Assembly: GCA_964436015.1 (NCBI GenBank)
Contig: CAYTAR010000004.1
Location: 23,454 to 87,453 of the forward strand
Length of the DNA stretch: 64,000 nucleotides
Source of the DNA: an uncultured Candidatus Saccharibacteria bacterium
GTDB lineage: Bacteria; Patescibacteriota; Minisyncoccia; Phycocordibacterales; GCA-2401445
Direction: 5' to 3'
Each line of letters begins with the position of its first letter. Position 1 is the stretch's first letter. Below the pieces are notes generated by a model that had not been told where the DNA came from, made no database searches, and worked only from the letters and a program-made list of their open reading frames with translations. Made by a program: the position numbers and the translations under genes. Positions 1 through 33,933 of this stretch are shown here, one piece after another.

Positions 1-1017
1 GCCTTCCTTTTCCTTTACCTGACTCAAGGCTTCTTTTACTGTCTCTTTTGTATCAGCATACAACGTATTTTTATACTGACACGAACGAGCTATCATGCAA
101 AAATCAACAAAAAAGCCTGCGGTCTTTTGTCCACCGACTGACTCATGCGAACCATTATTAAATACAATATGAGTTAGGTTCTTTGGTTGTATTTGACCAA
201 TTGTCGCCATTCCCCCGAGATGCATCAAAGCCGCACCATCACCATCAAAACAGTACACTTTCCTTTTGGAATTATTCATCGCGATTCCTAGAGCGATTTG
301 AGATGCGTGCCCCATAGAACCTATAGTAAGAAAATCACGCTTATGCCCCATTTCGCTCGCCTTACGAATTTCAAAAAGCTCACGAGACATTTTACCCGTA
401 GTTGAAACAACCACAGCATCTTCCTCGAGCATATTTATAACCGATGCAATTGCTTCTTCTCGAGTAAGAGAATACACACCGTTCGACGCCTTCTCTGTTT
501 TTTCTGATTTAAACAAACCTTTGCGTACAACAAGAGCATGAGGAGTGCCCCTTGCGCGAACTGAAGCGACCGCGCTAATCAACTCTTGCTTTGCTACCTC
601 CTCGTCAGCAGATAGAACAGTGTAAGGTATACCCATGGCATCAAGTAATGGTGTAGTAACCTCGCCCATTGTAATATGTTGGGGCTCATCACTTACTCCT
701 GGCTCTCCTCTCCATCCAATTAATAATAAAGCTGGAATCTGATAGACTTTTTGATCTAAAAGTGAAATGAGAGGGTTTACCGCATTCCCCAAACCAGAAT
801 TCTGCATATATATAAGAGGAATATTTCCAGTTGTTAAATGATATCCCGTCGCAAGACCGAGTGCCGTTCCTTCATTTACAGAAATAACGTGACTTGTTGG
901 TGGCAACGATACATCTATGTATTCACAAAACTCCTTTAACAATGAATCTGGAACACCAGTAAAAAAAGTGACTTCTTGACTTACCAAATAATCCAAAAAT
1001 TGCTTAGGTGATATCAT
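1..1017 (-). CDS. ppd: phosphonopyruvate decarboxylase (thiamine-diphosphate enzyme), 3-prime end truncated by the window edge
   Basis: Own reverse-complement translation from ATG at 1017: MISPKQFLDYLVSQEVTFFTGVPDSLLKEF...CFDGDGAALMHLGG (TPP-binding GDG motif). Lies 11 nt downstream of the PepM fusion gene. Not on the ORF track because it runs off the window. Confidence 0.75.
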   Translation of the reverse strand, partial: MISPKQFLDYLVSQEVTFFTGVPDSLLKEFCEYIDVSLPPTSHVISVNEGTALGLATGYHLTTGNIPLIYMQNSGLGNAVNPLISLLDQKVYQIPALLLIGWRGEPGVSDEPQHITMGEVTTPLLDAMGIPYTVLSADEEVAKQELISAVASVRARGTPHALVVRKGLFKSEKTEKASNGVYSLTREEAIASVINMLEEDAVVVSTTGKMSRELFEIRKASEMGHKRDFLTIGSMGHASQIALGIAMNNSKRKVYCFDGDGAALMHLGGMATIGQIQPKNLTHIVFNNGSHESVGGQKTAGFFVDFCMIARSCQYKNTLYADTKETVKEALSQVKEKEG

Positions 1018-1028
1018 CGTTTAAATTT

Positions 1029-2372
1029 TTATATTTTTTTGCCTCCGTTGTTTTCTATTAAATTCAAAATTTCTTTAATAGACATACAGTACTTACTAGA
1101 GGCTTCTTTAGATCGCTCCTTTTCAAGTATCAAACGCGCAGTGTTAACCATTGCAGGATACGCACTTCGTAGTAAGTGATTAGCGTAAATTACAATACTA
1201 AAGCCCATTTTATATAAATTTTTCTCTGTAAGGTGGTCATACGTCGTAGGAACTGCTACCAGTGGTATATCTGCACCAAATTCTTTATACCTTTTACAAA
1301 ATTCCTCAATTTTCTCGGTAGTTTTATCCTTGCTATGAATCATTATTGCGTCAGCTCCGGCTTCAATATACGCTTTAGCACGGCGTATGGCATCGTCTAC
1401 ATCCTTTCCCAGAATAAAGCTTTCTATACGTGCAATTATCATAAAATCCTCTGAGACCCTCGCTTTTACTCCAGCCGAAATCTTCTCACAAAAATTTTTA
1501 ACACTATCAGACTCCTGCTTCACAGATGTACCATAAAGAGAATTCCTTTTCACACCCTTTTTATCTTCAATGATTACTGCAGAGACACCTAATCTTTCAA
1601 GGGTTTTTACTGTGTAAGGAAAGTGTTCAACCAGCCCCCCAGTATCACCGTCATAAATAACAGGTTTAGTGGTTACTTCAAGGATATCATGGAGCGTACT
1701 AACTCGCGAAGTAAGATCAACAAGTTCAATATCAGGTTTTCCTTTCATAGTAGAATCAGTAAGACTACTAAGCCACATAAAATCAAACTCCTGGGTACTT
1801 CCTTTCTTATTTACCTGTATATGCTCTGCAATCAAAGCTGAAAGTCCGCTGTGGGCCTCAATCCCCCTTACTGTATTTTTGGAATCCAAAAGACGACGAA
1901 GCCTCTTAATACGTAGGGTTGGGGTTGTACCTATTTCCTTCAAGGCTTGATTTAGTTTCGTGGATGATATTCCTTCTGTGTATTTAGGCTCAATGAGTTT
2001 CCCACCCCATTGTTTTAACAATTCAATTACTTTTGCCCGTACGTTTTTTTGAATTCCATGTTTCCAATCATCACCATGTACGACAAAATCAGGCTTTAAT
2101 TTTTTCAGATTTTGAGAATAATCTAATGTCTCTTGGGGGACAACTTCACTGACACCAACAATGTGAGTTACTATTTCTTTTCGTTGTTCATATGAAAGAA
2201 ATGGTAATCGCTTATAACTAGCAATAGCCTTGTCAGTTAACAAACCAATAACGACTTTTCCGTATTTTCTCCCTTCATTGATAATATTTAAATGACCAGG
2301 ATGAATAAGATCAGCACTCATACCGATATACACCAATTTCTCACCTTTAATTTCTTTAGACATATAAATCAA
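1029..2372 (-). CDS. pepM: bifunctional nucleotidyl(cytidylyl)transferase / phosphoenolpyruvate phosphomutase
   Basis: N-terminal domain has the HxGH cytidylyltransferase motif (IHPGH). C-terminal ICL/PEP-mutase fold carries the PepM-diagnostic EDKxxxxxNS ([15 protein letters not shown]). 447 aa. Confidence 0.8.
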
Positions 2373-2471
2373 ATATTTTCAACCAATAAAATACACAATA
2401 TTCAGAAGTTAAGGATAGCACTTGAGTACCCTTTGTGCAATAAAGAGCCTAACTACTACACTTAGCCACAC

Positions 2472-3254
2472 CTAAAGAGTCATTTTTGACTTAATAAACT
2501 TCACATAGTCAATTGCTTTCGTCATCCTGATTTTAAACTGTGTAAATGAAATTGAACGGTCCACTTGAATACGTTTAATCCTATAGGGGTTGGTGTGTGG
2601 CTTAACCAAGCCCTCAGTAATCACACAACCGCCTGCAAATAATGTTTTCACTACCTGCTCTACATCCCTATTCACCCTACCTGCAGGATACGCAACAAAC
2701 TGCGGTGTGTATCCTGTATGCCTCTGAATGTCATCTTTTGAACGCACGAGCTCATTTGTGAGAGCTTCCACTGATAATTCGGTAAAATTCGTATGGCTCT
2801 CTCCATGCACTTCAAACGTAACCCATCCTTCCTGAGCAACCCGCTCAATACCCTCCCACGCGGGCCGAGGGAGATTCCCAAGTTTTTCCATTGGAAAGAA
2901 GTTAGTGGTGAGAAACACGGTAGCTGGAATACGATACTTCGCAAGTAGTGGAGCAACAACAGAAATAGTATCCTCATACCCATCATCAAATGTCACCGCA
3001 ACGCTTTTATGAGGCAACTCTTTTTCACCCCGAGTATACGCCACCACATCTGCAAAAGATACCGGGTTCATATTCTCCTTAATATATTTCAAGTGTCGCT
3101 CAAACTGTAGAGGTGTTACTCCATACTTCCACTGACTATTTTCAACTGAATGGTACATTAAAACTGAGACTTCTTTACCCCGCACAAAAATACGCACAAG
3201 TGTACGAACACACCATGCAAAGGAATATACTATTGTTTTGAAATACAATCGCAT
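2472..3254 (-). CDS. polysaccharide deacetylase (NodB / CE4 family), N-terminal TM
   Basis: TFDDGYED and LMYHSV motifs; RIPATVFL. Confidence 0.7.
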   Translation of the reverse strand: MRLYFKTIVYSFAWCVRTLVRIFVRGKEVSVLMYHSVENSQWKYGVTPLQFERHLKYIKENMNPVSFADVVAYTRGEKELPHKSVAVTFDDGYEDTISVVAPLLAKYRIPATVFLTTNFFPMEKLGNLPRPAWEGIERVAQEGWVTFEVHGESHTNFTELSVEALTNELVRSKDDIQRHTGYTPQFVAYPAGRVNRDVEQVVKTLFAGGCVITEGLVKPHTNPYRIKRIQVDRSISFTQFKIRMTKAIDYVKFIKSKMTL

Positions 3255-3850
3255 ACATCAACTATTATTCGCTCTTCGTCCTTTGTTCCTCGTATATACA
3301 AAGTCGGAACTACTCTTTCGGTAAGGCACTCTAATATTACCCTATGAACTTCAAACACCACCTCAGTAAAACGGTTCTGATATTCAGTACCCATAAATGC
3401 TCGCATTCCCTTTCCTCGTTTTGCGAGTCTACTCAACACTTCTTCTTTTGGGAGATCAAATATGACTCTTACGCTCGGGAGAGGAGCGTGACTCAATAAC
3501 TTAGATACAATACTAGCAGACGGAGTGCGCTCAAATAAACTCAAACAGTGTTGGAGCATTCCTTCCTCCACCAACACATGCACTCGTGCACGGGACGCCC
3601 CCATCCATTCTCCAATCCTATACATAAACACCCTCAATTTCCACCACACAAGGTAAATGCCTCCCCATTCGCGCAGGATGATTCGTAGTGATAAAAAGAA
3701 AAAGCGAGGAAATTTAAATACAAACAAACATACGTATACACCCCTCACTAAAAACGAAGTTGGGTGCATGTGTGCGAAACCGCACGAACGAAACGTTCGT
3801 GCTAAAGTGCTTTTCCCTGAACCAGGAGGACCATATGTTTCCAGTACCAT
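3230..3850 (-). CDS. P-loop NTPase / small kinase-like protein, possibly disrupted
   Basis: Walker A GPPGSGKST at the N-terminus. The middle ~60 aa is low-complexity and unlike a natural protein, so a frameshift or pseudogene is possible. Confidence 0.35.
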   Translation of the reverse strand: MVLETYGPPGSGKSTLARTFRSCGFAHMHPTSFLVRGVYVCLFVFKFPRFFFLSLRIILREWGGIYLVWWKLRVFMYRIGEWMGASRARVHVLVEEGMLQHCLSLFERTPSASIVSKLLSHAPLPSVRVIFDLPKEEVLSRLAKRGKGMRAFMGTEYQNRFTEVVFEVHRVILECLTERVVPTLYIRGTKDEERIIVDVCDCISKQ

Positions 3851-4632
3851 TAGCCCTTGAAAGTTACTTGATAAGATTCAGAAAAAAAGCGAGTAATAAC
3901 ATTCATATTCATCCATCCGAGTAACACGTAGAGTGCTCTATCAGCAAATGCGGAACGCAGTCCAGGGAATACAAACGTTACCGGACGAACAGAAGTTATT
4001 ACGAACCCTTCCTTATGGAGCAAGCTACATAATTCCTTATCAGATACCTGAAGCGCGTGAAAATCCTTCACTGCTCTTTTTTTATTCCATGGTCTATTAT
4101 ACTGAGGTGTCTTAGTGATAATTGAACCGTGAGATTGAGTTGCTGTTACTTCACGAATCTTTTTCACCAATGCTTCTTTATCAGAAAAATATTCTATCGC
4201 TCGTGAAGAAAAAAACACTGTGGCTTTCTTTTGAGGTATATATTCAAGGAAATCAGATACGGTAAATGTGACATTCTCAGAGCCTGATAAGTTTTCTTTC
4301 GCGAGCACAATCATCTCTTCTGAAATATCAACCAACCCATACTCCATATCAGGAAATTCAGATAAAAACTCTCGAGTCCACGTGCCGGGACCCGGACCCA
4401 ATTCAAGATACACTTTATGAGCGACACTCTTCTTTAACTCAAAGATAAAACGATACACCGCCCGACGGGTCATGTCATACCCCGCTTTTCTCTGCGCAGT
4501 TGAAAACCACCTCTCACGCTCATACTCACCCCTATACGCGCCTGGTATCATGGTGTTGTATATCCCCCGCACATCAGCATTTTTCATTTCCCTATTGTAA
4601 GCGAAAGCGAAAACAGTGGCAATTTTGTACAC
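3850..4632 (-). CDS. class I SAM-dependent methyltransferase
   Basis: Motif I LELGPGPGTWT; 260 aa. Confidence 0.65.
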   Translation of the reverse strand: MYKIATVFAFAYNREMKNADVRGIYNTMIPGAYRGEYERERWFSTAQRKAGYDMTRRAVYRFIFELKKSVAHKVYLELGPGPGTWTREFLSEFPDMEYGLVDISEEMIVLAKENLSGSENVTFTVSDFLEYIPQKKATVFFSSRAIEYFSDKEALVKKIREVTATQSHGSIITKTPQYNRPWNKKRAVKDFHALQVSDKELCSLLHKEGFVITSVRPVTFVFPGLRSAFADRALYVLLGWMNMNVITRFFSESYQVTFKG

Positions 4633-4706
4633 AGTTTATCACCTCTCAATTATAGACAGATTGAGCAGGAAATTTAAACTTTAATTATTATTATTATTTT
4701 CTAAAA

Positions 4707-6473
4707 ATGCCATGGCGTACTACAAACAATTATTCTCTCTCATTTTTTTTCTTTATTTTTTTATTTACACCGACAAACGTATTTGCTCAAAATTCTCACT
4801 CATCAGAGTTTGATGGTGTAAATGACTATTTATTTGTAAATGACAACCCTTCACTATCGATAACAGGTGATTTAACTGCAGAATTATGGGTAAATTTTAA
4901 TTCATTCAACGAGAATGATCAGGGGATTTTAATCTCAAAGTACGGAGGTGGATCAAACGAGAGAGCATACCAATTTGGATACTTTAAAAACACATCTGAT
5001 GGAAAGCAATACTTTGAAAGTAGAATCTCCGATGACGGAACAGGACCCAATACGAGCGTTGTTACTCTTGAATATACCCTGGCGACTAGCACATGGTACC
5101 ACATTGCTTTTGTATATAAAGCGGCAACTGGAACTATTGATGTTTACGTTGCAACCACAAGTGCGCTGAGCCACACTTTTGCCGGCACAATGTCTGGCCA
5201 TAGAAATTCCATAAAAGATAGTTCTTCTCAGTTTAGAGTTGCCTCATCCCACGGAGCAGGAAGTATAGTTTACTTTGATGGTTTCATTGATGAAGTAAGA
5301 ATATGGAGTGATATTAGAACCACCTCTGAAATTTATTCAAACTTCAAAACAGAATTAAATGGGGATGAATCAAATTTAGCTGGATACTGGAAATTAAATA
5401 ATTCATTGAATGATAGCACATCAAATGGGAACAATCTCTCAAACAACGGCGGCGTAACATTCACGGCTTTTAAACCCTTTCCTATCCCACCCTCTATTGC
5501 GATCGACCCATCGCCAAGTATTGCATCAACATCAGTTGCTACATCGACTGAAATAACATGGTCTCCAGGAACTGGGTTAACGCAACAAGCTGTATACTTT
5601 GGAACTTCATCAGATCCAGGATTGAATGAATTCAAAGGTATATACAGTAGCACAACCACTTTCTACGACCCAGGAATACTTCAAGCATCAACAACATATT
5701 ACTGGCGGATTGACACAGCAAATTCGGAAGCGACGACTACTGGAAATTTATGGAATTTTTCAACTATTGCTGAACCAGAAAATTCACATTCTATTGGACT
5801 CAACGGAATAGATGACTACCTTTCTGTAGCAGACAGTTCATCTCTATCCATAACAGGCGACTTGACCATTGAATTCTGGGCAAAATTTGACTCATTCAAC
5901 ATTGATGATCAAGGTATACTTGTTTCTAAATGGGGTGATTATGGAGGAGGAAACAATCAACGTGCATACCAATTTGGTTATTATAAAACATCTGGGGGTA
6001 CAGGATATTTTTATCCTCTTACTTCCGCGGATGGAACAAATGTTACTTCAGCAACAATTCAATATGATTTAGCAACGAGCACTTGGTATCACTTAGCATT
6101 CATCTATACTGCCGCAAGTGGTACAGTTAGTGTATATGTTGCTACTACATCAGATTCAAGCCACGCGTTAGTAGGAACTTCATCGGGATTTACCACCTCA
6201 CTTAAAGATACTGTTTCTGAATTCCAGATTGGCTCTTCTGATGGGTCTGGCAATGCAGTATATCTTGATGGAATAATTGATGAAGTAAGAGTGTGGTCTA
6301 AAACTAAGAGTAAATTAGAATTAGACACCGATTACACCACAGAATTAACAGGCTCTGAAACAAATCTTGAAGCATATTGGAACTTCAACAACACATTGAA
6401 TGATGCAACAATTAACGGGAACAATCTGACAAATAACAATGGTGCAACGTTTGTAACATCCACACCATTCTAA
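4707..6473 (+). CDS. secreted protein with two tandem LamG-like (concanavalin A-like lectin/glucanase) domains separated by an Fn3-like module
   Basis: Signal peptide (…NVFA|QN). Two ~230-aa internal repeats (DGVNDYLFV…TWYHIAFVY…IDEVRIW versus GIDDYLSV…TWYHLAFIY…IDEVRVW). YYWRID Fn3-like segment between them. Confidence 0.6.
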   Translation: MPWRTTNNYSLSFFFFIFLFTPTNVFAQNSHSSEFDGVNDYLFVNDNPSLSITGDLTAELWVNFNSFNENDQGILISKYGGGSNERAYQFGYFKNTSDGKQYFESRISDDGTGPNTSVVTLEYTLATSTWYHIAFVYKAATGTIDVYVATTSALSHTFAGTMSGHRNSIKDSSSQFRVASSHGAGSIVYFDGFIDEVRIWSDIRTTSEIYSNFKTELNGDESNLAGYWKLNNSLNDSTSNGNNLSNNGGVTFTAFKPFPIPPSIAIDPSPSIASTSVATSTEITWSPGTGLTQQAVYFGTSSDPGLNEFKGIYSSTTTFYDPGILQASTTYYWRIDTANSEATTTGNLWNFSTIAEPENSHSIGLNGIDDYLSVADSSSLSITGDLTIEFWAKFDSFNIDDQGILVSKWGDYGGGNNQRAYQFGYYKTSGGTGYFYPLTSADGTNVTSATIQYDLATSTWYHLAFIYTAASGTVSVYVATTSDSSHALVGTSSGFTTSLKDTVSEFQIGSSDGSGNAVYLDGIIDEVRVWSKTKSKLELDTDYTTELTGSETNLEAYWNFNNTLNDATINGNNLTNNNGATFVTSTPF

Positions 6474-6486
6474 TTTACTTAACCAA

Positions 6487-6535
6487 ACATAAAAAACCAT
6501 CCCAGAGAGTAAGGGATGGTTTTTTATGTTTGGTT
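6487..6535. terminator. bidirectional rho-independent terminator between convergent genes
   Basis: aaaaaccatccc-agagagtaa-gggatggtttttt, with an extended outer palindrome. Confidence 0.5.
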
Positions 6536-7193
6536 AGAAAAACTTTGTCGGAACTTCAACTATCCCTTTCTCTTTATCTTCATACGTCGTGAACAATTTT
6601 GGCTCACCAGTTTTTTTAAGTACATAAATAATCTCATACGCGAGCCCAGGAAACTTCAAAGGATGAAAGGCGATTTTTGTTTTCACCAAACGAAATGATA
6701 AACCGACCTCATTCTCTATAGTAAACCCAACCCTATCCGCAAGAGTGCGCACATTGTACCGAGTAAAACTCTGAAAATGTTCCACCCATTTCGCTTTGCA
6801 CACACGGTGCTTAAACTTGTGAAAAAATATATTGAGCACATTTTCCCAATAATAATTAGGATTAGGACTTGAAAATACGAGATACCCATTCGGCTTTAAC
6901 ACTCGGTGAAGCTCACTCATGAGCTGTATTGGGTTCGCTACATGCGCAAGGACACACCCCATCGTAACTGCATCAAAGAAACCATCTTCATACGGAATAT
7001 GTCCCGTATTCAAATCTACTCTTTTTACCTCCTTATAACCGACGGGATGATTGTCTGCAACTATATCAATTCCATATATTTCTCCGTGTAAATAGGTGCT
7101 CGGATTTTGAGCATACCCGACATCAAGCACTTTCTGTGCATCCGGATATACCGCATATAAGGTATCAGCAATAACATTCCCTTTAGTTTTCAT
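6534..7193 (-). CDS. SAM-dependent methyltransferase (type 11-like)
   Basis: VLDVGYAQNP…GIDI, a Rossmann-type methyltransferase fold. Confidence 0.6.
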   Translation of the reverse strand: MKTKGNVIADTLYAVYPDAQKVLDVGYAQNPSTYLHGEIYGIDIVADNHPVGYKEVKRVDLNTGHIPYEDGFFDAVTMGCVLAHVANPIQLMSELHRVLKPNGYLVFSSPNPNYYWENVLNIFFHKFKHRVCKAKWVEHFQSFTRYNVRTLADRVGFTIENEVGLSFRLVKTKIAFHPLKFPGLAYEIIYVLKKTGEPKLFTTYEDKEKGIVEVPTKFF

Positions 7194-7205
7194 AATAGAA
7201 TTCTT

Positions 7206-7820
7206 CTATTTTAACACAACAAAAAAATGGTGGTACTGGTACGCAAAAGGTACAAAATGTTTTTTTACCACTCCAAACTGTGATAGTACGCGTACAAACC
7301 TATTCACTGTATACCCCTTCTTACCAAGTTCCCAGTAGTGCTCACCATTAAACTCATGCTCTTTCGGATGAGGAATTCGCAATGCGAAAGAAAGCTCTCT
7401 CAGAAGTGGTATTTTGAAAAGAAACTTAATTGGGTGACTAAAGTGCGGAACACTTATCACCACTCCCTTTTTAGCAACACGCACGATTTCAGAGAGAGCT
7501 TTTTCAACCTTTTCAAACGGGATATGCTCCAACACTTCGCAAACACATACCACATCAAACGTATTGTCTTCAAATGGAAGGGATGTAACATCCCCCACAA
7601 CATCTGGGTGCAGATCTTCTGCCACATCAAGTGAAGTGTACGTGATATCCGTATTATTTTTTATATACGATCCAAATACTTTATCCCCCACACCTACTTC
7701 AAGAACTGACTCGGGGGCAAACGAAAGAACCTCCTTTAACTGGTGGTAGTAACTTACAAAACGACCAACGTGTCCGTATTTCTTAAAATTGTAGTGCTGT
7801 TTATCTACTTGTTTCTCCAT
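7206..7820 (-). CDS. SAM-dependent methyltransferase (type 11-like)
   Basis: VLEVGVGDKVFG…FDVVCVCEVLEHIP. Start likely MEKQVDKQ at 7820; the longer track ORF overlaps the upstream GT. Confidence 0.6.
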   Translation of the reverse strand: MEKQVDKQHYNFKKYGHVGRFVSYYHQLKEVLSFAPESVLEVGVGDKVFGSYIKNNTDITYTSLDVAEDLHPDVVGDVTSLPFEDNTFDVVCVCEVLEHIPFEKVEKALSEIVRVAKKGVVISVPHFSHPIKFLFKIPLLRELSFALRIPHPKEHEFNGEHYWELGKKGYTVNRFVRVLSQFGVVKKHFVPFAYQYHHFFVVLK

Positions 7821-8856
7821 GAATAGTTTCAAGTATACGCGAAATAAGACGAGAAAGCCCGTGGTTTTCTTCAACCTCCTTCCGAAGTCTCTCCTGTATA
7901 TGTAACACATCTTTTCTCTCCAGCATATTCACAATCGTCTCTACGAGCGATGTCACATCTCGTTCTTTAAACACAAGCGTCTCTCTATCCTCTTTTAGCA
8001 CAGACCCGCACGCAATGCTTGATGTAACAGGTAATACCCCCACCGCCATTGCCTCAAGAATTACCTTATCCAAACTTCCAGTCTCGCTTGCATGGATAAG
8101 AACATCAGATGATGAGAGTAATTCTCGCAACTCATTCTGTCCTACTCCGCCGATAAAATTAACATAGTTCTGCAAATTATTTTCCTTTACAAATGTCTCT
8201 ACTTCCTCTAAGTACAATCTATCACTCGGGGTGATAGGATTTCCCACAATACGTAACTGTGCTGGAACACCACGATGTGTAAGCTCAGACAGTGCGCGCA
8301 CAACCAACAACACATTCTTTACTGGCGATATGCGGCCAACCGTAATTACATTAAGGGTGGAATTACGTGCATGTGGAGAGAAAGCAAACACAGATGTATC
8401 TATTCCATGCCCTGTAACCACAACCTTGTTACTTTGAATATTGAAACTCTCCTTTGATGCAGTACACACCATATGAGTAAGGAATGTTGCAATGCGAAGT
8501 TTTAAATCAACCGACTTGTGTGTGTACCACAACACAATTTTTTTACCGAGTAGTCTCCACAACAATCCTCCGAGGACTACATATTCGGGATTCATGTGCA
8601 CAAAAACTACATCATACTCCTTTCGTTTCTTCCACACGTAGTAATAAAAACGAAATATCCTCCCCAATCTACCAATCCCTTTTTCTTTTCCTAAACTGTA
8701 CACCTGTGTGTGGTCAGAAAGCTCATGTTCGCCAACTGACAAACCAACAACTTCTACTTGCTCTACCTGCGCTGAAAATTCTTCAATCCATCGGTGAAAA
8801 AAACCCAGTACTGGATCATTTTTATTTACCGTTTGTGTCAAAATAAGTATGCGCAT
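7801..8856 (-). CDS. glycosyltransferase family 4 (GT-B)
   Basis: C-terminal E-x7-E type motif region (HASETGSLDKVILEAMAVGVLPV). Confidence 0.7.
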   Translation of the reverse strand: MRILILTQTVNKNDPVLGFFHRWIEEFSAQVEQVEVVGLSVGEHELSDHTQVYSLGKEKGIGRLGRIFRFYYYVWKKRKEYDVVFVHMNPEYVVLGGLLWRLLGKKIVLWYTHKSVDLKLRIATFLTHMVCTASKESFNIQSNKVVVTGHGIDTSVFAFSPHARNSTLNVITVGRISPVKNVLLVVRALSELTHRGVPAQLRIVGNPITPSDRLYLEEVETFVKENNLQNYVNFIGGVGQNELRELLSSSDVLIHASETGSLDKVILEAMAVGVLPVTSSIACGSVLKEDRETLVFKERDVTSLVETIVNMLERKDVLHIQERLRKEVEENHGLSRLISRILETIHGETSR

Positions 8857-9286
8857 GTCTAAATGTATGTATCTTGTTTACAAGAAAATTAACCACCCCC
8901 ACGATAAGCACAGCGAAGACTTGAGAGATAAGAGGGGTGTAGTCTAATCGATCAATAAACACATGCAACAAAAGCAAGTTCATGCCGAGCCCAACAATTG
9001 CTACCGTACTGTACCACATAAACTCCCGCCTTCCTTCCCCCCAGTGACGGTGACGAAATGTCCAATACTTTTGAAGAGCAAAATTTACCACGAGTGCAAT
9101 TACAAATGAAATAACAGCGGCAATCGGATACCACATACCTTCGCGTTCAAGAAACCAGAAAATAAATACATTGAGCGTAGCTCCTGTTAGCCCAGATATC
9201 CCGTATCTAACAAGCAACCAAAAATCCCTAAAATGTGAAATTAAGTTAGATATGACGCCGTTTTTGCCTGATGAAATCTTGACCAT
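8822..9286 (-). CDS. GtrA-family membrane protein (polysaccharide synthesis/translocation accessory)
   Basis: ~150 aa with 4 TM helices and a GtrA-like N-terminus (YGISGLTGATLNVFIFWFL). Confidence 0.55.
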   Translation of the reverse strand: MVKISSGKNGVISNLISHFRDFWLLVRYGISGLTGATLNVFIFWFLEREGMWYPIAAVISFVIALVVNFALQKYWTFRHRHWGEGRREFMWYSTVAIVGLGMNLLLLHVFIDRLDYTPLISQVFAVLIVGVVNFLVNKIHTFRHAHTYFDTNGK

Positions 9287-10115
9287 ATACAGAACTCAGA
9301 ATATCAATATCCTTATTACTTGCAAGTAGGAGCTCAATATTTTTATCACGAAGTGCGGTGAGCAACTCTACTCCCGATGTGTCTCCCACAAGTGATGTGT
9401 ATAACCCCGAAAAAGCACTAAAGTCCTTGAGAAAGCAATTTCCACCGGCTCCTCGGCCACTTTTATGCACTGGTGACATGTGGCTATTTCCAATACGAGG
9501 GTCTGCGGAAAGTGCCTGTGCTACTGCTTCCCATTCAACCCCAAGACTATTTGCCGTATCATACACCATGTTCATAAATATCACTTTCAAAAAAAGGAAA
9601 TTATTTCCCGCGTACTTAATCAATTCTGCACTTCTTGCTGTAGTGACGAGTGTGTACGGGGCATACGGTAATACATCCATAATCGCCTCAGCGCGCTCTC
9701 TAAATTCAGCATTATCAATTGCCATCCCGACAATGTTTCTATCTGGGTGACTTGCATCATAAGACGCATTTGATTCCGTTAGGAATTCCGGAGAATGAAA
9801 CAAAAATAATTCAGGGTGTGCATCCTGCAGTTTTTCGGTTGTCTTGGGAAGTATGGTTGATTTAATAACTACACTTGCTCCACGCCCCGCGAGCGACAAT
9901 ACTCCTTCCACAATACTCGCATCAGAACCGTCAGGTGTGGTGGGGGTAGGTACCGCAACGAACACCAGATCACAATGCTTTATTCTGTCTTTATTATCAC
10001 GATACTCAGCATCAAGAGAATAACGTATTACTTCAAAACCACGATTCTCAAAATCATCGGCATAATTTTTACCGACATACCCTTGACCAATGAATCCGAT
10101 TTTTTTAAATTTCAT
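9246..10115 (-). CDS. UDP-glucose/GDP-mannose dehydrogenase family protein (short form)
   Basis: N-terminal GFIGQGYVG Rossmann motif; catalytic-Cys motif GGNCFLKD. Start likely MKFKKIGF at 10115. Confidence 0.55.
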   Translation of the reverse strand: MKFKKIGFIGQGYVGKNYADDFENRGFEVIRYSLDAEYRDNKDRIKHCDLVFVAVPTPTTPDGSDASIVEGVLSLAGRGASVVIKSTILPKTTEKLQDAHPELFLFHSPEFLTESNASYDASHPDRNIVGMAIDNAEFRERAEAIMDVLPYAPYTLVTTARSAELIKYAGNNFLFLKVIFMNMVYDTANSLGVEWEAVAQALSADPRIGNSHMSPVHKSGRGAGGNCFLKDFSAFSGLYTSLVGDTSGVELLTALRDKNIELLLASNKDIDILSSVYGQDFIRQKRRHI

Positions 10116-10146
10116 ATGAAATACTTGTCTCTCAATAGTACCCGAT

Positions 10147-11298
10147 TTATAGACTCTCTGCACGTGCACTTCTCCACGATTCCTGCATACGCATAATAGT
10201 TTGCTCAATAGTTCCGAGCTTCATGAGTGCTTCTCTTCCATTTTGAATATACATATTTCTTTTTTCTTCATCCTGTAAGACCTGCACCACACCCTCCGCA
10301 AAACTATTCATATCATGAAGTGGCACTACCACACCACTCACCCCACTTTGAACGACCTCTCCTGCACATCCAACATCTGTCATAACCACTGGAAGTCTGC
10401 TTGCGAGCGCCTCAATCACCACCCTACCCCACCCTTCATAATTTGAAGACAACGCATACACATGAGCAGTTTTGTACATACTTGCCACATCGTCTGTCCA
10501 ATCATACATAAATACTTTCTCTCGTATTCTCAGACGCTCAATCTGAGAAGTAATATTCTTTTTTTCTGACCCACTACCAACAAGCACCAAACACGCTTCA
10601 GGGATGGAAACGAGCACTCGCGCAAACGCATCAATCAACAATGCGACATTTTTTTGTGGAACCATGCGTCCAACCCAAAGAACGAAAGGTCCGCTCATTC
10701 CCGTCTTCTCTTGCAGTCCTAACTTGGGGACCGCGTGTACATACTCTTCAACAGGAGTTACTACAGGAAAACATACAATTTTTTCCTTTTTTACTCCCAA
10801 AGAAATAAGTTTCTTTTCAATTCGCTTTGATACAACACGCACCTGTGTTGCGCGGGCTAGTACGAACAGCCCAATATTGTAGCGTATTCGGTTAAGGAGA
10901 GATTCTTTACGCCAATCAGGTGTACTGAAAAAATCACCGTGCTCTTGAACCTGTAGCGGAAGCCTGCATACCCTTGCGAGAATTAACCCCAATAACCCTG
11001 CTTCAAACGGATCTTGTGTACTCACCACCCAATCACGACGTTTGCTCTTCAAAATGAGTGAATATGAAATAAAAAAAGCACGCAGTAGATGAAAGAGCGG
11101 AATTCGGGCATTAGTGGGATATACATGCACGGAGTCGCCAATATGAGTAACATGGTTTTTAAGTCGTGCATGAGAAAAAACTACGATATGTTGCTCAAAC
11201 TCACTTCCTGCATACGCAACCTGCCTTCGTGCAGATCGCGAATATGATATGAACAAATCTTTATCACTCCCTATCGTAAGTATCGGAATTCTACTCAT
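10147..11298 (-). CDS. glycosyltransferase family 4
   Basis: EGWGRVVIEALASRLPVVMTDVGCAGEVV. Confidence 0.7.
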   Translation of the reverse strand: MSRIPILTIGSDKDLFISYSRSARRQVAYAGSEFEQHIVVFSHARLKNHVTHIGDSVHVYPTNARIPLFHLLRAFFISYSLILKSKRRDWVVSTQDPFEAGLLGLILARVCRLPLQVQEHGDFFSTPDWRKESLLNRIRYNIGLFVLARATQVRVVSKRIEKKLISLGVKKEKIVCFPVVTPVEEYVHAVPKLGLQEKTGMSGPFVLWVGRMVPQKNVALLIDAFARVLVSIPEACLVLVGSGSEKKNITSQIERLRIREKVFMYDWTDDVASMYKTAHVYALSSNYEGWGRVVIEALASRLPVVMTDVGCAGEVVQSGVSGVVVPLHDMNSFAEGVVQVLQDEEKRNMYIQNGREALMKLGTIEQTIMRMQESWRSARAESL

Positions 11299-12293
11299 AG
11301 TAATTTACAATATTCGGACACAATATCTTCCCACGTGTGAATCTTTTTAAAATTCTGCGCTTTTGATGCGTACGATTCATAGTATGCAGGATATGAAAGC
11401 GACCTGATTGCTTCAGCAAGCGCACTCACATCAAACGGATCAACACACACACCGACATCTCCTAGCTCCTCACACAAACCACTATCCTTTGTGAGGATAA
11501 ATGGTTTTCCGTAACGAAGTCCTTCAAGGATAATATTCGGCGCAACCTCCGAAAATGAAGGAACTACGATGACCCCTGCTTGTGCAATTTTCTCTTCCAG
11601 CCTATCAGGAGGAAATGTTCCAGTAATAAGCTCAATGCCTCCTTTCGTCTGTTTTACCTCATTAAATGCCTGTTGTAGTAACTCAATGTTTTTTAGCACA
11701 ATCGGTCTCCCCACTGCAAGAAATGTTTTTACTTCACCTTGCGTATGTAGAGTATTCTTTTTCTCACCATAGTAATTCTCAACAATGGCACATTTCTCCT
11801 CGGGAATTCCGTACGCTGTTTGTGTAAAACGCTTTTGCCACTCGGTGGTAAAAGCAACCACATCAGCATGGCGATATACTCTAGTAATTAAAAAACGAAC
11901 GCACTTCTCTTTAAAAGACAATGCTCTTTTTTCTAAGTAGAATTCACTCAAATGTACTTGTTGCTTTGTTCGTTCAACCCACATTTCCCACAAAAAATCA
12001 CCCCCCACACGAACTACGATTTTTTTCCGCATCACTTTTGCAGCACAGAGCGCAGGAAATCCTACACTAAAAGTATCGAGTGCAAGAACACCTTGTGTGC
12101 CAATGAGCTTAAAACAAGTCTTTAAGAAAAAGAATACATGTCGCACTCCTGTTGGAAGACGTTTCTCAAGCGAAAACCGCGCAATACGCACAGAATGCCC
12201 CATCTCATGCGCAGTATGTGTAATCATTGCCGCATACTTAGCGGGACCTCCTATATCTGGCGGAAAAATTCCTGTCGCAATTACAAATTTCAT
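11295..12293 (-). CDS. glycosyltransferase (GT-B, GT4-like)
   Basis: Architecture and operon context; start codon overlaps the neighbouring GT (ATGA). Confidence 0.5.
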   Translation of the reverse strand: MKFVIATGIFPPDIGGPAKYAAMITHTAHEMGHSVRIARFSLEKRLPTGVRHVFFFLKTCFKLIGTQGVLALDTFSVGFPALCAAKVMRKKIVVRVGGDFLWEMWVERTKQQVHLSEFYLEKRALSFKEKCVRFLITRVYRHADVVAFTTEWQKRFTQTAYGIPEEKCAIVENYYGEKKNTLHTQGEVKTFLAVGRPIVLKNIELLQQAFNEVKQTKGGIELITGTFPPDRLEEKIAQAGVIVVPSFSEVAPNIILEGLRYGKPFILTKDSGLCEELGDVGVCVDPFDVSALAEAIRSLSYPAYYESYASKAQNFKKIHTWEDIVSEYCKLL

Positions 12294-13459
12294 ACTTTTT
12301 TATGTAACGATTCACAGAGGGTTAAAAACTGTCCCGAAAGCGTGTCCCATACATACTTCTCCATAACCATTTTTTGTCCATTCTGAGCAATCATTCTCGC
12401 CTGTTCTGGAATATTTGCAAGCTCGCTCACTGCATGAACTAGCGCGCTTGGATTATCCGGTTCAATCAGTATTCCAGTCTTCCTATCTTGGAGAAAATCA
12501 ACAATACCCCCAACTGGAGTACCTATCACGGGCAACCCACATGCAAGTGCCTCAACAAAAGAATTACCGAAACCCTCACTTCGTGAAAGTCTTACAAAAA
12601 TATCGCTTGCGTGCAAATACTGGGGTAATTCATCCTGAGTAACACTTGGCACAAAATGTACACGGTCAATTACGGCAAGCTCTTTTGCGAGGGCATTAAG
12701 CGAACCACCAAGTGGTCCACTTCCGACTATAAGGACATGAACTTTTTTATTCAACAGAGGCAGAGTGCGAATCAGTGTATCAAGTCCGTTTTTATACACC
12801 AGTCGTGACGTGCTTACTAGTACATACGCACTCGTCGGTATGTGTAGTTTTTGTCGCAACGCATTTCGCCCAACCTCTGATGCCCGAGCAGTGAATACTG
12901 ATATATCTACTCCGTTAGGGAGTAGTGTAATAGGTGCCTTTGTTCCACTTTGTTTTGCACGGTGTATAAGATACTTACTTATTGCGGTAATATGGGTTGC
13001 ACGACGAATCGGAAAATAGTGCATTGGCTGTACAATCAAACGATACAAAAGCTCATTTCCAAACACGTATCGCTTTAGGTATCGCTCATCGTCCCCTTCT
13101 TGCAAGGTTACCACAAACTCTTTTTTGTTACGGATAGTATGAAAGAGTGCTCCTGCAATACTTCCGAAACTAGCCATAATACCCCACACACAATCATAGG
13201 TAGTCTTTCGCGAACGGACCAATGCGACAAAAAAACCAGTTACTGGAAATACATACTTATCAATTGGATGCCCGATCCCAACCCGACGAACATTGATACT
13301 CCCCACACGCTCTCGTTTTGGAAGTGTCCGTGAATATCTCGGGGTCAACATATCAAACGCAATCCGCTCAGGCGGAATACGCTTCGTGAGCTCATGCACG
13401 GCTATCTCCGCCCCGCCAATGTGAGGCAAATAGTCTGTACTAAAAATAAGGATTTTCAT
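12290..13459 (-). CDS. glycosyltransferase family 4
   Basis: SRSEGFGNSFVEALACGLPVIGTPVGG. Confidence 0.7.
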   Translation of the reverse strand: MKILIFSTDYLPHIGGAEIAVHELTKRIPPERIAFDMLTPRYSRTLPKRERVGSINVRRVGIGHPIDKYVFPVTGFFVALVRSRKTTYDCVWGIMASFGSIAGALFHTIRNKKEFVVTLQEGDDERYLKRYVFGNELLYRLIVQPMHYFPIRRATHITAISKYLIHRAKQSGTKAPITLLPNGVDISVFTARASEVGRNALRQKLHIPTSAYVLVSTSRLVYKNGLDTLIRTLPLLNKKVHVLIVGSGPLGGSLNALAKELAVIDRVHFVPSVTQDELPQYLHASDIFVRLSRSEGFGNSFVEALACGLPVIGTPVGGIVDFLQDRKTGILIEPDNPSALVHAVSELANIPEQARMIAQNGQKMVMEKYVWDTLSGQFLTLCESLHKKV

Positions 13460-14994
13460 TCTTCCTCTAGTATATCGTACTCGTCTGCTTCGCGTATCCC
13501 CTGCTTACGGTACTGATACAGTGCGTACACCGGCATGAAACCAAGGGGAATAAGCGCGAGTAACCACCAGACTATACCATCCCCATTCTGAGGTGTCATT
13601 CCTGAAGAAACCTGCGCCACTAAGGTGCTTGTATTGATGCTTGTATCAACTATTGGCAGAAAATCCTCTTCCACATCCTCAACTGTATCCTTCTTGTTTT
13701 TATCATTGTCCTCATTCAAAACTGCGACCGTACGTTCATCTTCCGGGAGAGTGATAATTTTCTCACTAACTACACGACTACTCGGTATGTCTTGTGGTGT
13801 TGTTTTTTGATATGACTGAGGATTCACGGTGGACGCTTGTAGTGCAGGCACAGCATAACGCGCAATCTCTGTACCAAGCGTATTACGCAGAAGTACCGTG
13901 TCAGAAGGACTAAACACCAACCCAGTTGCGTGAGTACCGAACGGTGCCGTACTTTTTGGAGCAAGCATAGTCCCGCTCGGAAAAACAAACACACCATTTT
14001 GGGTTGAAATACTCCACGAAGTAATATCAATCGCGAGTGTTGAGTCATTACGCACTGACACGTATCCATCACTTCCTGTTTTGACGTCTATCAATGTAAG
14101 AGTAGGAGTTACTACTGTAACAGTTACATAGTCTGAAGCGGTAAACTCACCGGACGAAACAGATAACACTGCAGTATACACCCCAGCGTGCCTATATCTA
14201 TGGAGTACATTTTTCCCCTCCAAAAAAGTACCGTCACCGAAATTCCAGGTATACCGTGCAATAGAAAGAGGTTCACCCTTAAGTCCAAACCCCTCTCCGC
14301 GAAACTCAATATCAGCACCAACGAACGCGGTTCGGTCAATGCCTGCGTTTGCTTCTATTTTCTTTTGACCATCATGACGCAGTGGTACAGACCCGCTATC
14401 TTGAGTAGTAATATCCGCCTCCTCATCTGTGCTCGAAGATGTATTCTCTTGCGTATACTGAACTATTGAGGCGCCAGAATTACTATTTTCTTTTCCCGGA
14501 GTTGGATTAAAAGCTCCCCACGAACCATTCACCAGCTGGAGCGAAAGCCCGTCATTTTTCGCACCCCACTCTGAGGTATAAGTAACAGAATCAACAATAG
14601 GAGCATCTTTCTTCCCTGATTTCATGGCAATCGTCTCGCTATCAGTCAATGCAAAAACAGACCTAAGTAGCAACCCGTTAAATGAAGTGAAATAATTCTT
14701 AAATGCGGTAGGGTCGCGTGAAATTATTGCGTACCCATTTGGAGGAATTACCCCCTCCCCTTCAACAACCGCGGTAATTCCATGATCAACTTCATTTTCA
14801 TAGAAAATCCACTCAGTGAGATTAATAGTATCCCCACTTATATTTTGCACCTCTATCCATTCGCTTCCAGATGTAGAATCCGTTTTAAACGGATCGTACA
14901 TAATTTCAGTAATTTGAACACTCGCACTCATCATAGCGGGATACAGTATCCCGCTCAAAAGTAATAAAATTAAAAATACATTACTCCTCTCCAT
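13456..14994 (-). CDS. membrane-anchored surface protein: lamin-tail domain – PKD domain – second LTD-like domain – S/T-rich linker – C-terminal TM
   Basis: Signal peptide. LTD motif ITEIMYDP…SEWIEVQNISGDTINLTEWIF. PKD motif YTWNFGDGT…HRYRHAGVYTAVLSV. C-terminal WWLLALIPLGFMPVYALY. Confidence 0.65.
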   Translation of the reverse strand: MERSNVFLILLLLSGILYPAMMSASVQITEIMYDPFKTDSTSGSEWIEVQNISGDTINLTEWIFYENEVDHGITAVVEGEGVIPPNGYAIISRDPTAFKNYFTSFNGLLLRSVFALTDSETIAMKSGKKDAPIVDSVTYTSEWGAKNDGLSLQLVNGSWGAFNPTPGKENSNSGASIVQYTQENTSSSTDEEADITTQDSGSVPLRHDGQKKIEANAGIDRTAFVGADIEFRGEGFGLKGEPLSIARYTWNFGDGTFLEGKNVLHRYRHAGVYTAVLSVSSGEFTASDYVTVTVVTPTLTLIDVKTGSDGYVSVRNDSTLAIDITSWSISTQNGVFVFPSGTMLAPKSTAPFGTHATGLVFSPSDTVLLRNTLGTEIARYAVPALQASTVNPQSYQKTTPQDIPSSRVVSEKIITLPEDERTVAVLNEDNDKNKKDTVEDVEEDFLPIVDTSINTSTLVAQVSSGMTPQNGDGIVWWLLALIPLGFMPVYALYQYRKQGIREADEYDILEEE

Positions 14995-33550: not shown

Positions 33551-33580
33551 GAAAAACTCCGCTTGTATGCGGAGTTTTTC
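33551..33580. terminator. terminator hairpin following rnpB
   Basis: gaaaaactccgc-ttgtat-gcggagtttttc. Confidence 0.5.
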
Positions 33581-33892
33581 ATTTGTTGTGTACCATAAGC
33601 CGAATTCTGTATCCGCTAAGCGGATGATAATCATTTATCTGGGATATGTGTTACCACATACCTCAAGCGGCACTCCCCTCGACAAGCTCGGGGCACGGCC
33701 TTGCACCCAGGTAAGGATTTTGCCGTTTCACTTCTTTGTTACCAAAGACATTACCCCATACAGGGTACCTAGCCTTTCGGCATCAGCGTCACTGCTCGCA
33801 CCTCTCGGTTTACCCGGACGGGCGTTACCCGCTACCCTTCTCCAACACAAACGTGTGGGAGTGTTCGGACTTTCCTCTGTTTTACAACAGCG
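33580..33892 (-). ncRNA. rnpB: RNase P RNA (bacterial)
   Basis: Minus strand carries GGAAAGTCCGAACACTCCCACACG (CR-I-like), AGGGTAGCGGGTAACGCCCG (CR-II-like) and ACAGAATTCGGCTTATGG (CR-V-like). P1 pairing TGTTGT/ACAACA at the ends. Track ORFs here (33567..34124, 33736..33999 etc.) are spurious. Confidence 0.65.
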
Positions 33893-33933
33893 ATTATCCA
33901 GTACACAGAAAAACCATACCACAATATTTACAA

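Follow-up and report, generated by a model that had tools for sequence, protein, structure and literature searches.

The left end of the 64,000-nt window, that is, the whole stretch of DNA analysed here, probably carries the committed core of an HEP-branch (2-hydroxyethylphosphonate) phosphonate-tailoring pathway, set among the surface-glycan genes of a CPR bacterium of Paceibacteria type, a reading to which we assign a probability of about 80%. The core consists of a cytidylyltransferase-PEP mutase fusion followed by a phosphonopyruvate decarboxylase (Ppd), both encoded on the minus strand. In the proposed scheme, the PEP mutase domain of the fusion would convert PEP to phosphonopyruvate, and Ppd would convert phosphonopyruvate to phosphonoacetaldehyde, pulling the mutase equilibrium forward. 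Synteny with relatives points to an Fe-dependent alcohol dehydrogenase (Fe-ADH) just past the left edge, which would produce HEP from phosphonoacetaldehyde. Homology and a sequence signature suggest that the cytidylyltransferase domain would then form CMP-HEP from HEP and CTP, as Fom1 does. Judging from the genomic context, CMP-HEP may donate its hydroxyethylphosphonyl group to a methylated and partly deacetylated surface polysaccharide or glycoconjugate, and this acceptor would be the product of the neighbouring glycosyltransferases, methyltransferases, deacetylase and flippase. The most likely outcome is a cell surface decorated with 2-hydroxyethylphosphonate.

The fusion CDS (1029..2363, minus strand) was delimited from the ORF list, database identity and matches to PF01467, PF13714 and TIGR02320. 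An ORF of 447 aa, the size given in the sequence-only reading, does exist in the ORF list (1029-2372, minus strand, with a TTG start at 2372), but a product of 444 aa is likelier because the database protein P0001, which is 444 aa long and 100% identical to the fusion, begins at the ATG at 2363. The PEP mutase domain spans aa 155-438 (1050..1901, minus strand), and the EDKxxxxxNS motif noticed earlier in the C-terminal half is present in its gating loop (aa 266-275 in the 444-aa numbering; nt 1539-1568). This half scored 380.4 bits against the equivalog model TIGR02320 PEP_mutase (cut-off 319.55; E 4e-114), whereas the rival models gave 146.6 bits for phosphonopyruvate hydrolase (cut-off 374.4), 109.4 for methylisocitrate lyase (cut-off 354.4) and 65.1 for CPEP mutase (cut-off 420). 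Mytilus PepM (1m1b) is 36% identical to the domain. The residues that we take to be its catalytic and Mg-binding set (D58, D85, D87, E114, K120, N122, S123, R159 and H190) are all kept in the fusion, as D211, D238, D240, E266, K272, N274, S275, R312 and H343, and so are W44 and S46. The role of D58 is backed by the D58A mutant chain 1s2u, matched in the same structure search, and in the alignment phosphonopyruvate hydrolase 2dua has Thr at the Asn position of the EDKxxxxxNS motif. The curated cut-offs and motif residues together rule out methylisocitrate lyase, phosphonopyruvate hydrolase and CPEP mutase for the C-terminal domain; a methylisocitrate lyase or ICL identity was the alternative that the sequence-only reading had itself raised against a genuine PEP mutase, and it failed on cut-offs and residues alike. 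On this profile and residue evidence, the C-terminal domain is a PEP mutase whose catalytic residues are all in place, and it is predicted to convert PEP to phosphonopyruvate.

A spacer of 11 nt (1018..1028, minus strand; CGTTTAAATTT, read directly from the sequence) separates the fusion stop codon from the ATG of the next gene, a distance consistent with co-transcription. That gene (1..1017, minus strand) encodes the N-terminal 339 aa of a TPP-dependent decarboxylase and is open at the window edge; the spacing, the GDG motif and the truncation are all as first described. The TPP motif GDG-x25-NN lies at aa 259-288 (nt 154-243), and both TPP domains, PF02776 and PF02775, were matched. The protein scored 457 bits against TIGR03297 (cut-off 312.5; E 4e-137), and since the match covers profile positions 2-325 of 360, approximately 35-40 C-terminal residues should lie beyond the edge. 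The sulfopyruvate decarboxylase beta model reached 109.8 bits against a cut-off of 221.5, and the best acetolactate synthase model only ~44 bits against cut-offs of at least 363. Both identities are ruled out by these curated cut-offs; acetolactate synthase had been named beforehand as the one that would speak against Ppd. The top PDB matches were the Ppd alpha/beta subunits 9iz3, and the profile assignment is that of a TPP-dependent phosphonopyruvate decarboxylase. Decarboxylation to phosphonoacetaldehyde by Ppd is irreversible and draws the unfavourable PEP mutase equilibrium forward. Every feature that the sequence-only reading had placed in these two genes was confirmed at its position, and the family matches lie far beyond chance.

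The N-terminal half of the fusion, read earlier as an HxGH nucleotidyltransferase, carries HPGH at aa 21-24 (nt 2292-2303) and matches PF01467 CTP_transf_like with 57.9 bits (cut-off 21). The domain covers aa 9-144 (1932..2339, minus strand) and also contains AIASYKRLP (nt 2202-2228) and TEGISST (aa 129-135; nt 1959-1979), of which GISST is the nucleotide-binding motif. Compared with the solved cytidylyltransferase domain of Fom1 (PDB 5x3d), 82 of 136 residues are identical, GISST included (60%; E 3.3e-55), and we assign the domain as a Fom1-type HxGH cytidylyltransferase. Fom1 of Streptomyces wedmorensis (EC 2.7.7.104 / 5.4.2.9) has the same domain order, with PF01467 N-terminal and PepM C-terminal. 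Formation of CMP-HEP by the Fom1 domain was demonstrated biochemically (Cho 2017, as cited in PMC6697681), so the earlier suggestion that the fused domain implies a CMP-activated phosphonate stands on 60% identity to a CMP-HEP maker. One point of naming needs correcting: the fused domain is a cytidylyltransferase of the Fom1-type PF01467 family, whereas PntC was introduced as the name of a LicC-like PF12804 domain, and a Pfam scan of the fusion gave no PF12804 match. The PntC enzymes Tde1415 and Ari1348 are LicC-like and AEP-specific, in contrast to the PF01467 domain of the window, whose predicted substrate is HEP. The fused domain would thus work like PntC but belongs to another family. It joins the 23.6% of PEP mutases that are fused to PF01467 (Rice et al. 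2019, PMC6697681) and shares with the Pnt clusters of that study the principle that a phosphonate destined for the cell surface is first activated by cytidylylation, which is described there as the predominant logic in phosphonate tailoring.

The same architecture is also found in clusters of the 2-aminoethylphosphonate (AEP) type. Fusions of PF01467 and PepM sharing 60-62% identity with the one in the window occur in AEP-type clusters of Bacteroidota, and in Cyclobacteriaceae, Ekhidna and Rhodothermia the genes after them are Ppd and an Aminotran_5 gene. In addition, AEP is the commonest branch, accounting for 56% of gene neighbourhoods (PMC8942020), and the left flank of the window is where the deciding gene would sit. 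An AEP transaminase to the left, with the fused domain making CMP-AEP for a phosphonoglycan or phosphonolipid, is nevertheless unlikely. At all eight of the columns that split Fe-ADH-type from aminotransferase-type fusions, the window has the Fe-ADH/Fom1-type residue, although the aminotransferase set is phylogenetically narrow. Moreover, the neighbourhoods of the CPR relatives examined all contain Fe-ADH and no Aminotran_5 gene, and the protein P0122, almost certainly encoded on the same contig as the window, belongs to a family found beside Fe-ADH in five genomes.

The case for HEP comes mainly from these relatives. The closest, L001/L002, is a Paceibacterota MAG whose fusion is 81% identical and whose gene order is syntenic on the window side. 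In L001 the fusion is followed by Ppd, Fe-ADH, a sulfotransferase-fold ORF, GT2, GT4, an FkbM methyltransferase, a flippase and PMT_2. Fe-ADH after Ppd, together with glycan genes, recurs in all seven CPR relatives examined, which comprise L001/L002, L027/28 (Kaiserbacteria), L029 (Nomurabacteria), L030, L111/112 (Pacebacteria) and L113. The relatives of the window thus resemble the Fom1 system in pairing the fusion with Ppd and an HEP-supplying Fe-ADH. The sequence-only reading expected an aminotransferase or dehydrogenase and a transferase just left of the window; Fe-ADH and glycosyltransferases do stand there in the syntenic, 81%-identical relative. The Fe-ADH, and hence the HEP product, is assigned from relatives because the gene would lie off the left edge, and the left flank may differ from that of L001 since the two Ppd proteins are 64% identical compared with 81% for the fusions.

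HEP could also be only an intermediate that a methylphosphonate synthase beyond the window turns into methylphosphonate; the latter would then be linked as an ester to a surface polymer, as has been suggested for Nitrosopumilus. The methylphosphonate clusters of Nitrosopumilus maritimus and Pelagibacter (PepM, Ppd, Fe-ADH and MpnS) share the same three steps to HEP, and in the Pacebacteria L111/L112 a 394-aa MpnS homologue (L111:11339-12523) directly follows the cytidylyltransferase-PepM gene. Assignment as MpnS calls for an H/Q/H triad with Phe and Ile adjacent to its Gln (PMC11978286), and this homologue, which matches 6b9s (E 3e-57), keeps H148, Q152, H190, F162 and I184. We regard this route as very unlikely for the window, however. 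By tblastn, no MpnS- or HEPD-like sequence was found in the 64-kb window, within 10 kb in L001, or in L113 and L027-L030, and in L001 the Fe-ADH runs straight into the sulfotransferase-fold ORF and glycosyltransferases. MpnS therefore sets the Nitrosopumilus and Pelagibacter clusters apart from the window and its closest relative, in which no MpnS-like gene was seen, while L111 has a homologue. A 443-aa protein without a Pfam match, located after Fe-ADH in L030, was considered as an MpnS or HEPD and rejected, as it had no PDB sequence match.

Surface-glycan functions surround the HEP core proposed here. Across the window and L001 we found GT4 and GT2 glycosyltransferases, GtrA, a Wzx-type flippase, PMT_2, methyltransferases and a deacetylase. 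Directly upstream of the fusion is a polysaccharide deacetylase of the CE4 type (2472..3254, minus strand; PF01522, 93.3 bits), which is syntenic in L001/L002 at 62% identity; Polysacc_deac_1 genes in L030, L111 and L113 show that a deacetylase recurs beside the cassette in other CPR genomes. The next gene, overlapping both of its neighbours, encodes a 206-aa P-loop protein (3230..3850, minus strand) with the Walker A motif GPPGSGKST and sub-threshold AAA_18/17/33 matches. Its similarity to the adenylate-kinase N-terminus is weak, its family matches are confined to the Walker A motif, and it is kept, at 44% identity, in L001-L003 only. An SAM-dependent methyltransferase (3850..4632, minus strand; Methyltransf_31/25/12/11; 72% identity in L001) opens the same-strand array whose last two members are the fusion and Ppd. 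A promoter-like site precedes it at 4678-4649 (minus strand), though such sites are no commoner in this region than in shuffles, and in promoter and terminator scans of positions 1-5000 the counts were not above those of shuffled sequence. Further glycan-assembly genes occupy 6534..13459 (minus strand), assigned by Pfam and arranged in the same order in L001: two methyltransferases, four GT4 glycosyltransferases, a GtrA-like membrane protein and a UDP-glucose/GDP-mannose dehydrogenase-like protein.

This setting bears on whether CMP-HEP is a donor or a passing intermediate. Among characterised proteins Fom1 is the nearest homologue of the N-terminal domain, and in the fosfomycin pathway the Fom3 methyltransferase acts on CMP-HEP (PMC8158854; PMC6697681); by analogy, the locus could make a diffusible, fosfomycin-like small-molecule phosphonate, with cytidylylation as a transient handle for tailoring enzymes. 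Such a product is highly improbable here. Among the window ORFs at 2.4-24.6 kb we found no radical-SAM/cobalamin methyltransferase (Fom3), HppE-type epoxidase (Fom4) or FomD-like hydrolase, nor were Fom3, Fom4/HppE or FomD homologues present in the Pfam-annotated neighbourhoods of the relatives, and glycan-assembly genes lie all around. Fom1 itself belongs to an antibiotic cluster with Fom3, Fom4 and FomD, whereas its counterpart here is embedded in surface-glycan assembly in a CPR bacterium with none of the three seen. Because of both observations, CMP-HEP is more likely the donor than a transient intermediate. A precedent for HEP on surface glycans exists in Stackebrandtia nassauensis and Glycomyces sp., which, according to the accounts of Yu et al. 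2014 given in PMC8942020 and PMC13576164, esterify HEP to exopolysaccharide as phosphonoglycans through a PhpC-type Fe-ADH branch. As those accounts describe them, their clusters resemble that of the window in being rich in glycosyltransferases and methyltransferases; however, these are large-genome actinomycetes whose products were isolated chemically, in contrast to the CPR system, which is known from genes alone.

The transfer of HEP to the glycan would follow the logic of the Lic pathway (LicC and LicD) and of TagF-type CDP-glycerol transferases, in which a CMP-activated alcohol-phosphate or phosphonate is passed to a glycan. LicD-like and TagF-type families use CDP-activated alcohols. A LicD-like gene accompanies the cassette in L029 and a TagF-type PF04464 gene in L027, L111 and L113. 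In contrast to these Nomurabacteria, Kaiserbacteria and Pacebacteria relatives, the window and the closest relative, L001 (within 10 kb), showed neither a LicD- nor a TagF-type transferase. The 184-aa ORF after Fe-ADH in L001 was considered as a LicD-type transferase and rejected for want of any similarity to the LicD-like protein of L029; instead, it belongs in truncated form to a sulfotransferase-fold family of ~305 aa. This family has no Pfam or NCBIfam model, is annotated as 'hypothetical' everywhere, and sits inside the cytidylyltransferase-PepM/Ppd/Fe-ADH cassette of CPR and a small number of other bacteria. It stands beside Fe-ADH in five genomes, the gene is present in L111-L113 and L114, and its member P0122 is very probably encoded on the contig of the window, just left of the window. 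The TPST-like catalytic Arg (RSGT loop) is retained in the family, as is a Glu 21 residues further on, and the Arg that binds the 3'-phosphate of PAPS is systematically lost, as expected if a CMP-linked phosphonate replaced PAPS as donor. The family is hence a concrete candidate for the transferase step in this lineage, although the specific proposal that it moves the hydroxyethylphosphonyl group from CMP-HEP to glycan is tentative and, in our estimate, unlikely. If true, a new class of phosphonyl transferase would let ultra-small CPR bacteria cover themselves with phosphonate esters. A MeOPN-like scheme was also considered, in which the P-loop protein (3230-3850) phosphorylates the 3'-OH of CMP-HEP to give a PAPS-like donor for the sulfotransferase-fold protein. 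It is unsupported because the P-loop protein occurs in L001-L003 only and is absent from L111-L113 and L114 despite their sulfotransferase-fold gene, and because its family matches are restricted to the Walker A motif.

CPR bacteria lead a host-attached life with a very small set of biosynthetic pathways. That such a pathway-poor cell would spend PEP, TPP and CTP on a C-P surface modification suggests that the modification is important to the cell envelope or to contact with the host. Surface polymers become phosphatase-resistant when decorated with phosphonates, and such decoration has been proposed to reduce deaths caused by grazers and phages (PMC8931226). The HEP cassette recurs in Paceibacteria-type genomes, and yet no discussion of it was found in the literature searched: searches combining phosphonate biosynthesis or PEP mutase with CPR, Patescibacteria or Parcubacteria returned no paper making the link. 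The signature-complete methylphosphonate synthase encoded by at least one CPR relative also bears on where methylphosphonate, and through it aerobic methane, comes from in groundwater and freshwater.

The fusion itself adds one member to a well-described enzyme architecture and is not novel in kind. Among GTDB species representatives, it has relatives at 81% identity or less only. An exact 33-mer scan of JGI metagenomes gave no match, and a metagenome scan with Ppd gave no match closer than 57% identity. The sequence-only reading overstated the case in calling phosphonate production in a CPR-like organism notable, as more than 8000 homologues of the fusion exist and, of the 17 best matches with an organism name, 8 are from CPR bacteria, 3 from DPANN archaea and 6 from other bacteria. 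One of these 17 comes from a 2016-era Kaiserbacteria genome, in which the protein was already annotated as PEP mutase.

The left edge of the window encodes, as judged from profile scores and alignments, a PEP mutase (PepM), a phosphonopyruvate decarboxylase (Ppd) and a Fom1-type cytidylyltransferase. The cytidylyltransferase-PepM fusion appears in the ORF list as a 447-aa protein with a TTG start (1029-2372, minus strand). The identical database protein P0001 begins three codons later, from an ATG at 2363 (1029-2363, minus strand; 444 aa), and residue numbers of the fusion follow this 444-aa version. An 11-nt spacer (CGTTTAAATTT; 1018-1028, minus strand) separates its stop codon from the ATG at 1017 of the second ORF, the Ppd, which runs for 339 codons to the window edge (1-1017, minus strand). 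The sequence-only reading had claimed a phosphonate core of PepM fusion and Ppd at 1-2372, and the features it listed were all located where it placed them: HPGH at residues 21-24 of the fusion, the 15-letter PepM motif, with the 10-letter EDKxxxxxNS-type motif at residues 266-275, and, in the second ORF, FDGDG followed 25 residues on by NN. The two genes come last in the visible part of an array of genes on one strand, from 4632 down to 1, inside a 13-kb glycan-assembly locus.

With 380.4 bits, the C-terminal half of the fusion passes the 319.55 cut-off of the NCBIfam equivalog TIGR02320, and it falls far under the cut-offs of phosphonopyruvate hydrolase, methylisocitrate lyase and carboxy-PEP mutase. 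Aligned with Mytilus edulis PepM (1m1b; 36% identity), it keeps W44, S46, D58, D85, D87, E114, K120, N122, S123, R159 and H190; in the same alignment, the motif Asn is Thr in phosphonopyruvate hydrolase 2dua. The TIGR02320 score, the sister-family scores and the catalytic residues rule out an ICL/MICL-type motif. Even without its last 35-40 residues, which lie beyond the edge, the second ORF reaches 457 bits on TIGR03297 against a cut-off of 312.5; among solved structures, the split Ppd subunits 9iz3 are nearest to it. An acetolactate synthase-like protein is ruled out, since no corresponding model exceeds about 44 bits. Both calls thus withstood the alternatives raised against them.

The N-terminal 145 residues of the fusion match PF01467, and their best solved relative is the Fom1 cytidylyltransferase domain (5x3d; E = 3.3e-55, 82 of 136 residues identical). 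An Fe-alcohol dehydrogenase (Fe-ADH) gene comes straight after Ppd in the closest relative and in all the other CPR relatives examined (Kaiserbacteria GCA_001781095.1, Nomurabacteria GCA_020854065.1, GCA_034680565.1, Pacebacteria GCA_018061905.1 and Patescibacteria GCA_040384245.1), and likewise in archaeal, Pelagibacter and Methylococcales relatives. Relatives from Bacteroidota and Rhodothermia, similarly close (60-62% identity), have a class-V aminotransferase in place of Fe-ADH. Because some relatives carry the dehydrogenase and others the aminotransferase, the PF01467-PepM architecture is common to the 2-aminoethylphosphonate (AEP) and 2-hydroxyethylphosphonate (HEP) branches, as also reported previously (PMC8942020). 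Eight alignment columns of the cytidylyltransferase domain split the Fe-ADH-linked fusions, Fom1 included (MSAD...AIASYKRLP), from the aminotransferase-linked ones (MGTD...AV(S/T)K(Y/F)SR(M/T)P), and the window fusion carries the Fom1/Fe-ADH residue at all eight. This signature favours the HEP branch, supportively rather than decisively, because the aminotransferase-linked fusions compared span a narrow phylogenetic range.

At equilibrium the mutase strongly favours PEP, and the decarboxylation pulls its reaction forward. The proposed route would lead from PEP through phosphonopyruvate, phosphonoacetaldehyde and HEP to cytidylyl-activated HEP (CMP-HEP). PhpC-type Fe-ADHs convert phosphonoacetaldehyde to HEP (PMC8942020), and the Fom1 N-terminal domain forms CMP-HEP from CTP and HEP (Cho 2017, as cited in PMC6697681). 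The phosphonyl group of CMP-HEP would then pass to a surface glycan, a step suggested by the glycan context of the locus, by the LicD-like or TagF-type (PF04464) genes adjoining the cassette in other CPR genomes, and by a chemical precedent, HEP borne on exopolysaccharides of actinomycetes (Yu 2014, as cited in PMC8942020 and PMC13576164). Neither LicD nor TagF genes were seen in the window or within 10 kb in its closest relative, and therefore no transferase is assigned here.

According to Rice et al. (PMC6697681), 59.5% of PEP mutases carry a further, fused domain, with PF12804 (33.0%) and PF01467 (23.6%, exemplified by Fom1) among the partners; by its domain matches, the window fusion is a member of the PF01467 class. 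It resembles PntC in its way of working, but it is not a PntC because it has no match to PF12804; nor is it part of a fosfomycin cluster, since Fom3, Fom4 and FomD were seen neither among the window's ORFs at 2.4-24.6 kb nor in the relatives' Pfam-annotated neighbourhoods. The database search returned at least 8000 scored homologues, the best 120 of which share 64-81% identity and the same two Pfam domains. Seventeen of these 120 are organism-named, comprising 8 CPR (in Paceibacterota, Nomurabacteria and Kaiserbacteria), 3 DPANN archaea and 6 other bacteria. The phosphonate trait is already annotated in many CPR genomes. Our literature search found no paper discussing phosphonate biosynthesis in CPR or Patescibacteria, and one phylogenomic survey of 865 genomes recorded just 30 with both pepM and ppd, attributing none of them to CPR. 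The trait is thus of a known kind but under-appreciated in this lineage: to a phosphonate specialist its architecture and pathway are textbook matter, and public annotation already shows it in CPR.

The fusion's nearest homologue, P0002 (81% identical), belongs to the MAG Candidatus Paceibacterota bacterium LejiaA_42_15, whose contig is syntenic with window positions 1-13 kb. Shared genes encode a deacetylase, a P-loop protein, methyltransferases, a Laminin_G_3 protein, GT4 glycosyltransferases, GtrA and a UDP-sugar dehydrogenase. Given this homologue and the shared gene order, a Paceibacteria-type CPR bacterium is the very probable source of the window. After Ppd, the relative's operon continues with Fe-ADH, a 184-aa ORF, GT2, GT4, an FkbM methyltransferase, a Wzx-type flippase, a methyltransferase, PMT_2 and GT2. 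The 184-aa ORF is a truncated member of a ~305-aa sulfotransferase-fold family of about 124 clusters, every one annotated "hypothetical" and matching nothing by sequence in Pfam, NCBIfam or PDB. A full-length member, P0122 (73% identical), comes from a contig of 106,036 bp, exactly as long as the one that bears the window's fusion protein; it is absent from the window itself, and its gene therefore very probably sits just to the left. The family gene lies between the Fe-ADH and fusion genes in two other CPR genomes and abuts Fe-ADH in one 3.9-Mb non-CPR genome, and at least 14 members are on contigs equal in size to those with fusion matches. An RSGT loop and a Glu 21 residues downstream are invariant, with the same spacing as R78 and E99 of TPST2. 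The Arg of the 3'-phosphate-binding RDP/RNP motif is replaced by Asn, Ser, Ala or Thr in 42 of 42 aligned members. The family may comprise ordinary sulfotransferases acting on a glycan or on the HEP hydroxyl, or it may be a candidate phosphonyl transferase with CMP-HEP replacing PAPS. No PepM lies within 7 kb of a distant member of the family (36% identical; locus L115:6298-7915); a cytidylate (CMP) kinase gene directly precedes this member, and a weak PhyH-like ORF comes after it.

In Pacebacteria GCA_018061905.1, a 394-aa methylphosphonate synthase (MpnS) homologue lies directly after the cytidylyltransferase-PepM gene (L111:11339-12523, plus strand; identical in L112). It matches PDB 6b9s (E = 3e-57) and HEPD 6b9r (E = 2e-42), and keeps the His/Gln/His iron triad (H148, Q152, H190) together with F162 and I184, the Phe and Ile next to Gln. 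The triad and these two residues serve to call MpnS (PMC11978286), and this bacterium is accordingly predicted to be a methylphosphonate producer within CPR. A further MpnS-homologue locus is L094:983-2320. By tblastn, no MpnS-like sequence was found in the 64-kb window or, within 10 kb, in its closest relative, and the literature search found no paper tying MpnS to Patescibacteria. Both the candidate transferase and this predicted methylphosphonate synthase lie outside the fusion/Ppd coordinates.

Ppd is only 64% identical to that of the closest relative, versus 81% for the adjacent fusion; recombination in the glycan locus may explain why divergence is so uneven across one operon. The G+C content is 38.5% at 1-2372, 40.7% at 1-13459 and 42.3% in the rest of the window. 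A CE4 polysaccharide deacetylase (2472-3254, minus strand; counterparts L030:5795-6544, L111:12588-13364 and L113:13234-14022) sits one to three genes away from the phosphonate cassette in four CPR lineages. A de-N-acetylated sugar may thus be part of the modified glycan, and the deacetylase and sulfotransferase-fold protein are reminiscent of an N-deacetylase/N-sulfotransferase pairing. The P-loop protein (3230-3850, minus strand; 206 aa, Walker A GPPGSGKST, hydrophobic middle) has no family above threshold and overlaps its two neighbours (1 nt and 25 nt); conservation, at 44% identity, is confined to the closest relative, where one assembly annotates merely a 114-aa fragment. The sole plus-strand gene within the glycan locus encodes the apparently secreted Laminin_G_3 protein (4707-6473; 588 aa, 808 aa in the relative), with two concanavalin-like domains and Ser/Thr/Asn-rich linkers. 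Directly after the glycosyltransferase block, a surface protein with lamin-tail (LTD) and PKD domains (512 aa) adjoins a TraG/VirD4/TrwB-like type IV coupling ATPase (593 aa; pair at 13456-16762, minus strand). The rest of the window is housekeeping, with Mur ligases, MurJ, alanine racemase, LepA, GroEL, RNase J, two tRNAs and a bacterial class A RNase P RNA (33581-33909, minus strand). This RNA scores 107 bits against an Rfam gathering threshold of 100, a narrow margin consistent with a divergent lineage, and it overlaps a spurious ORF (33567-34124, plus strand).
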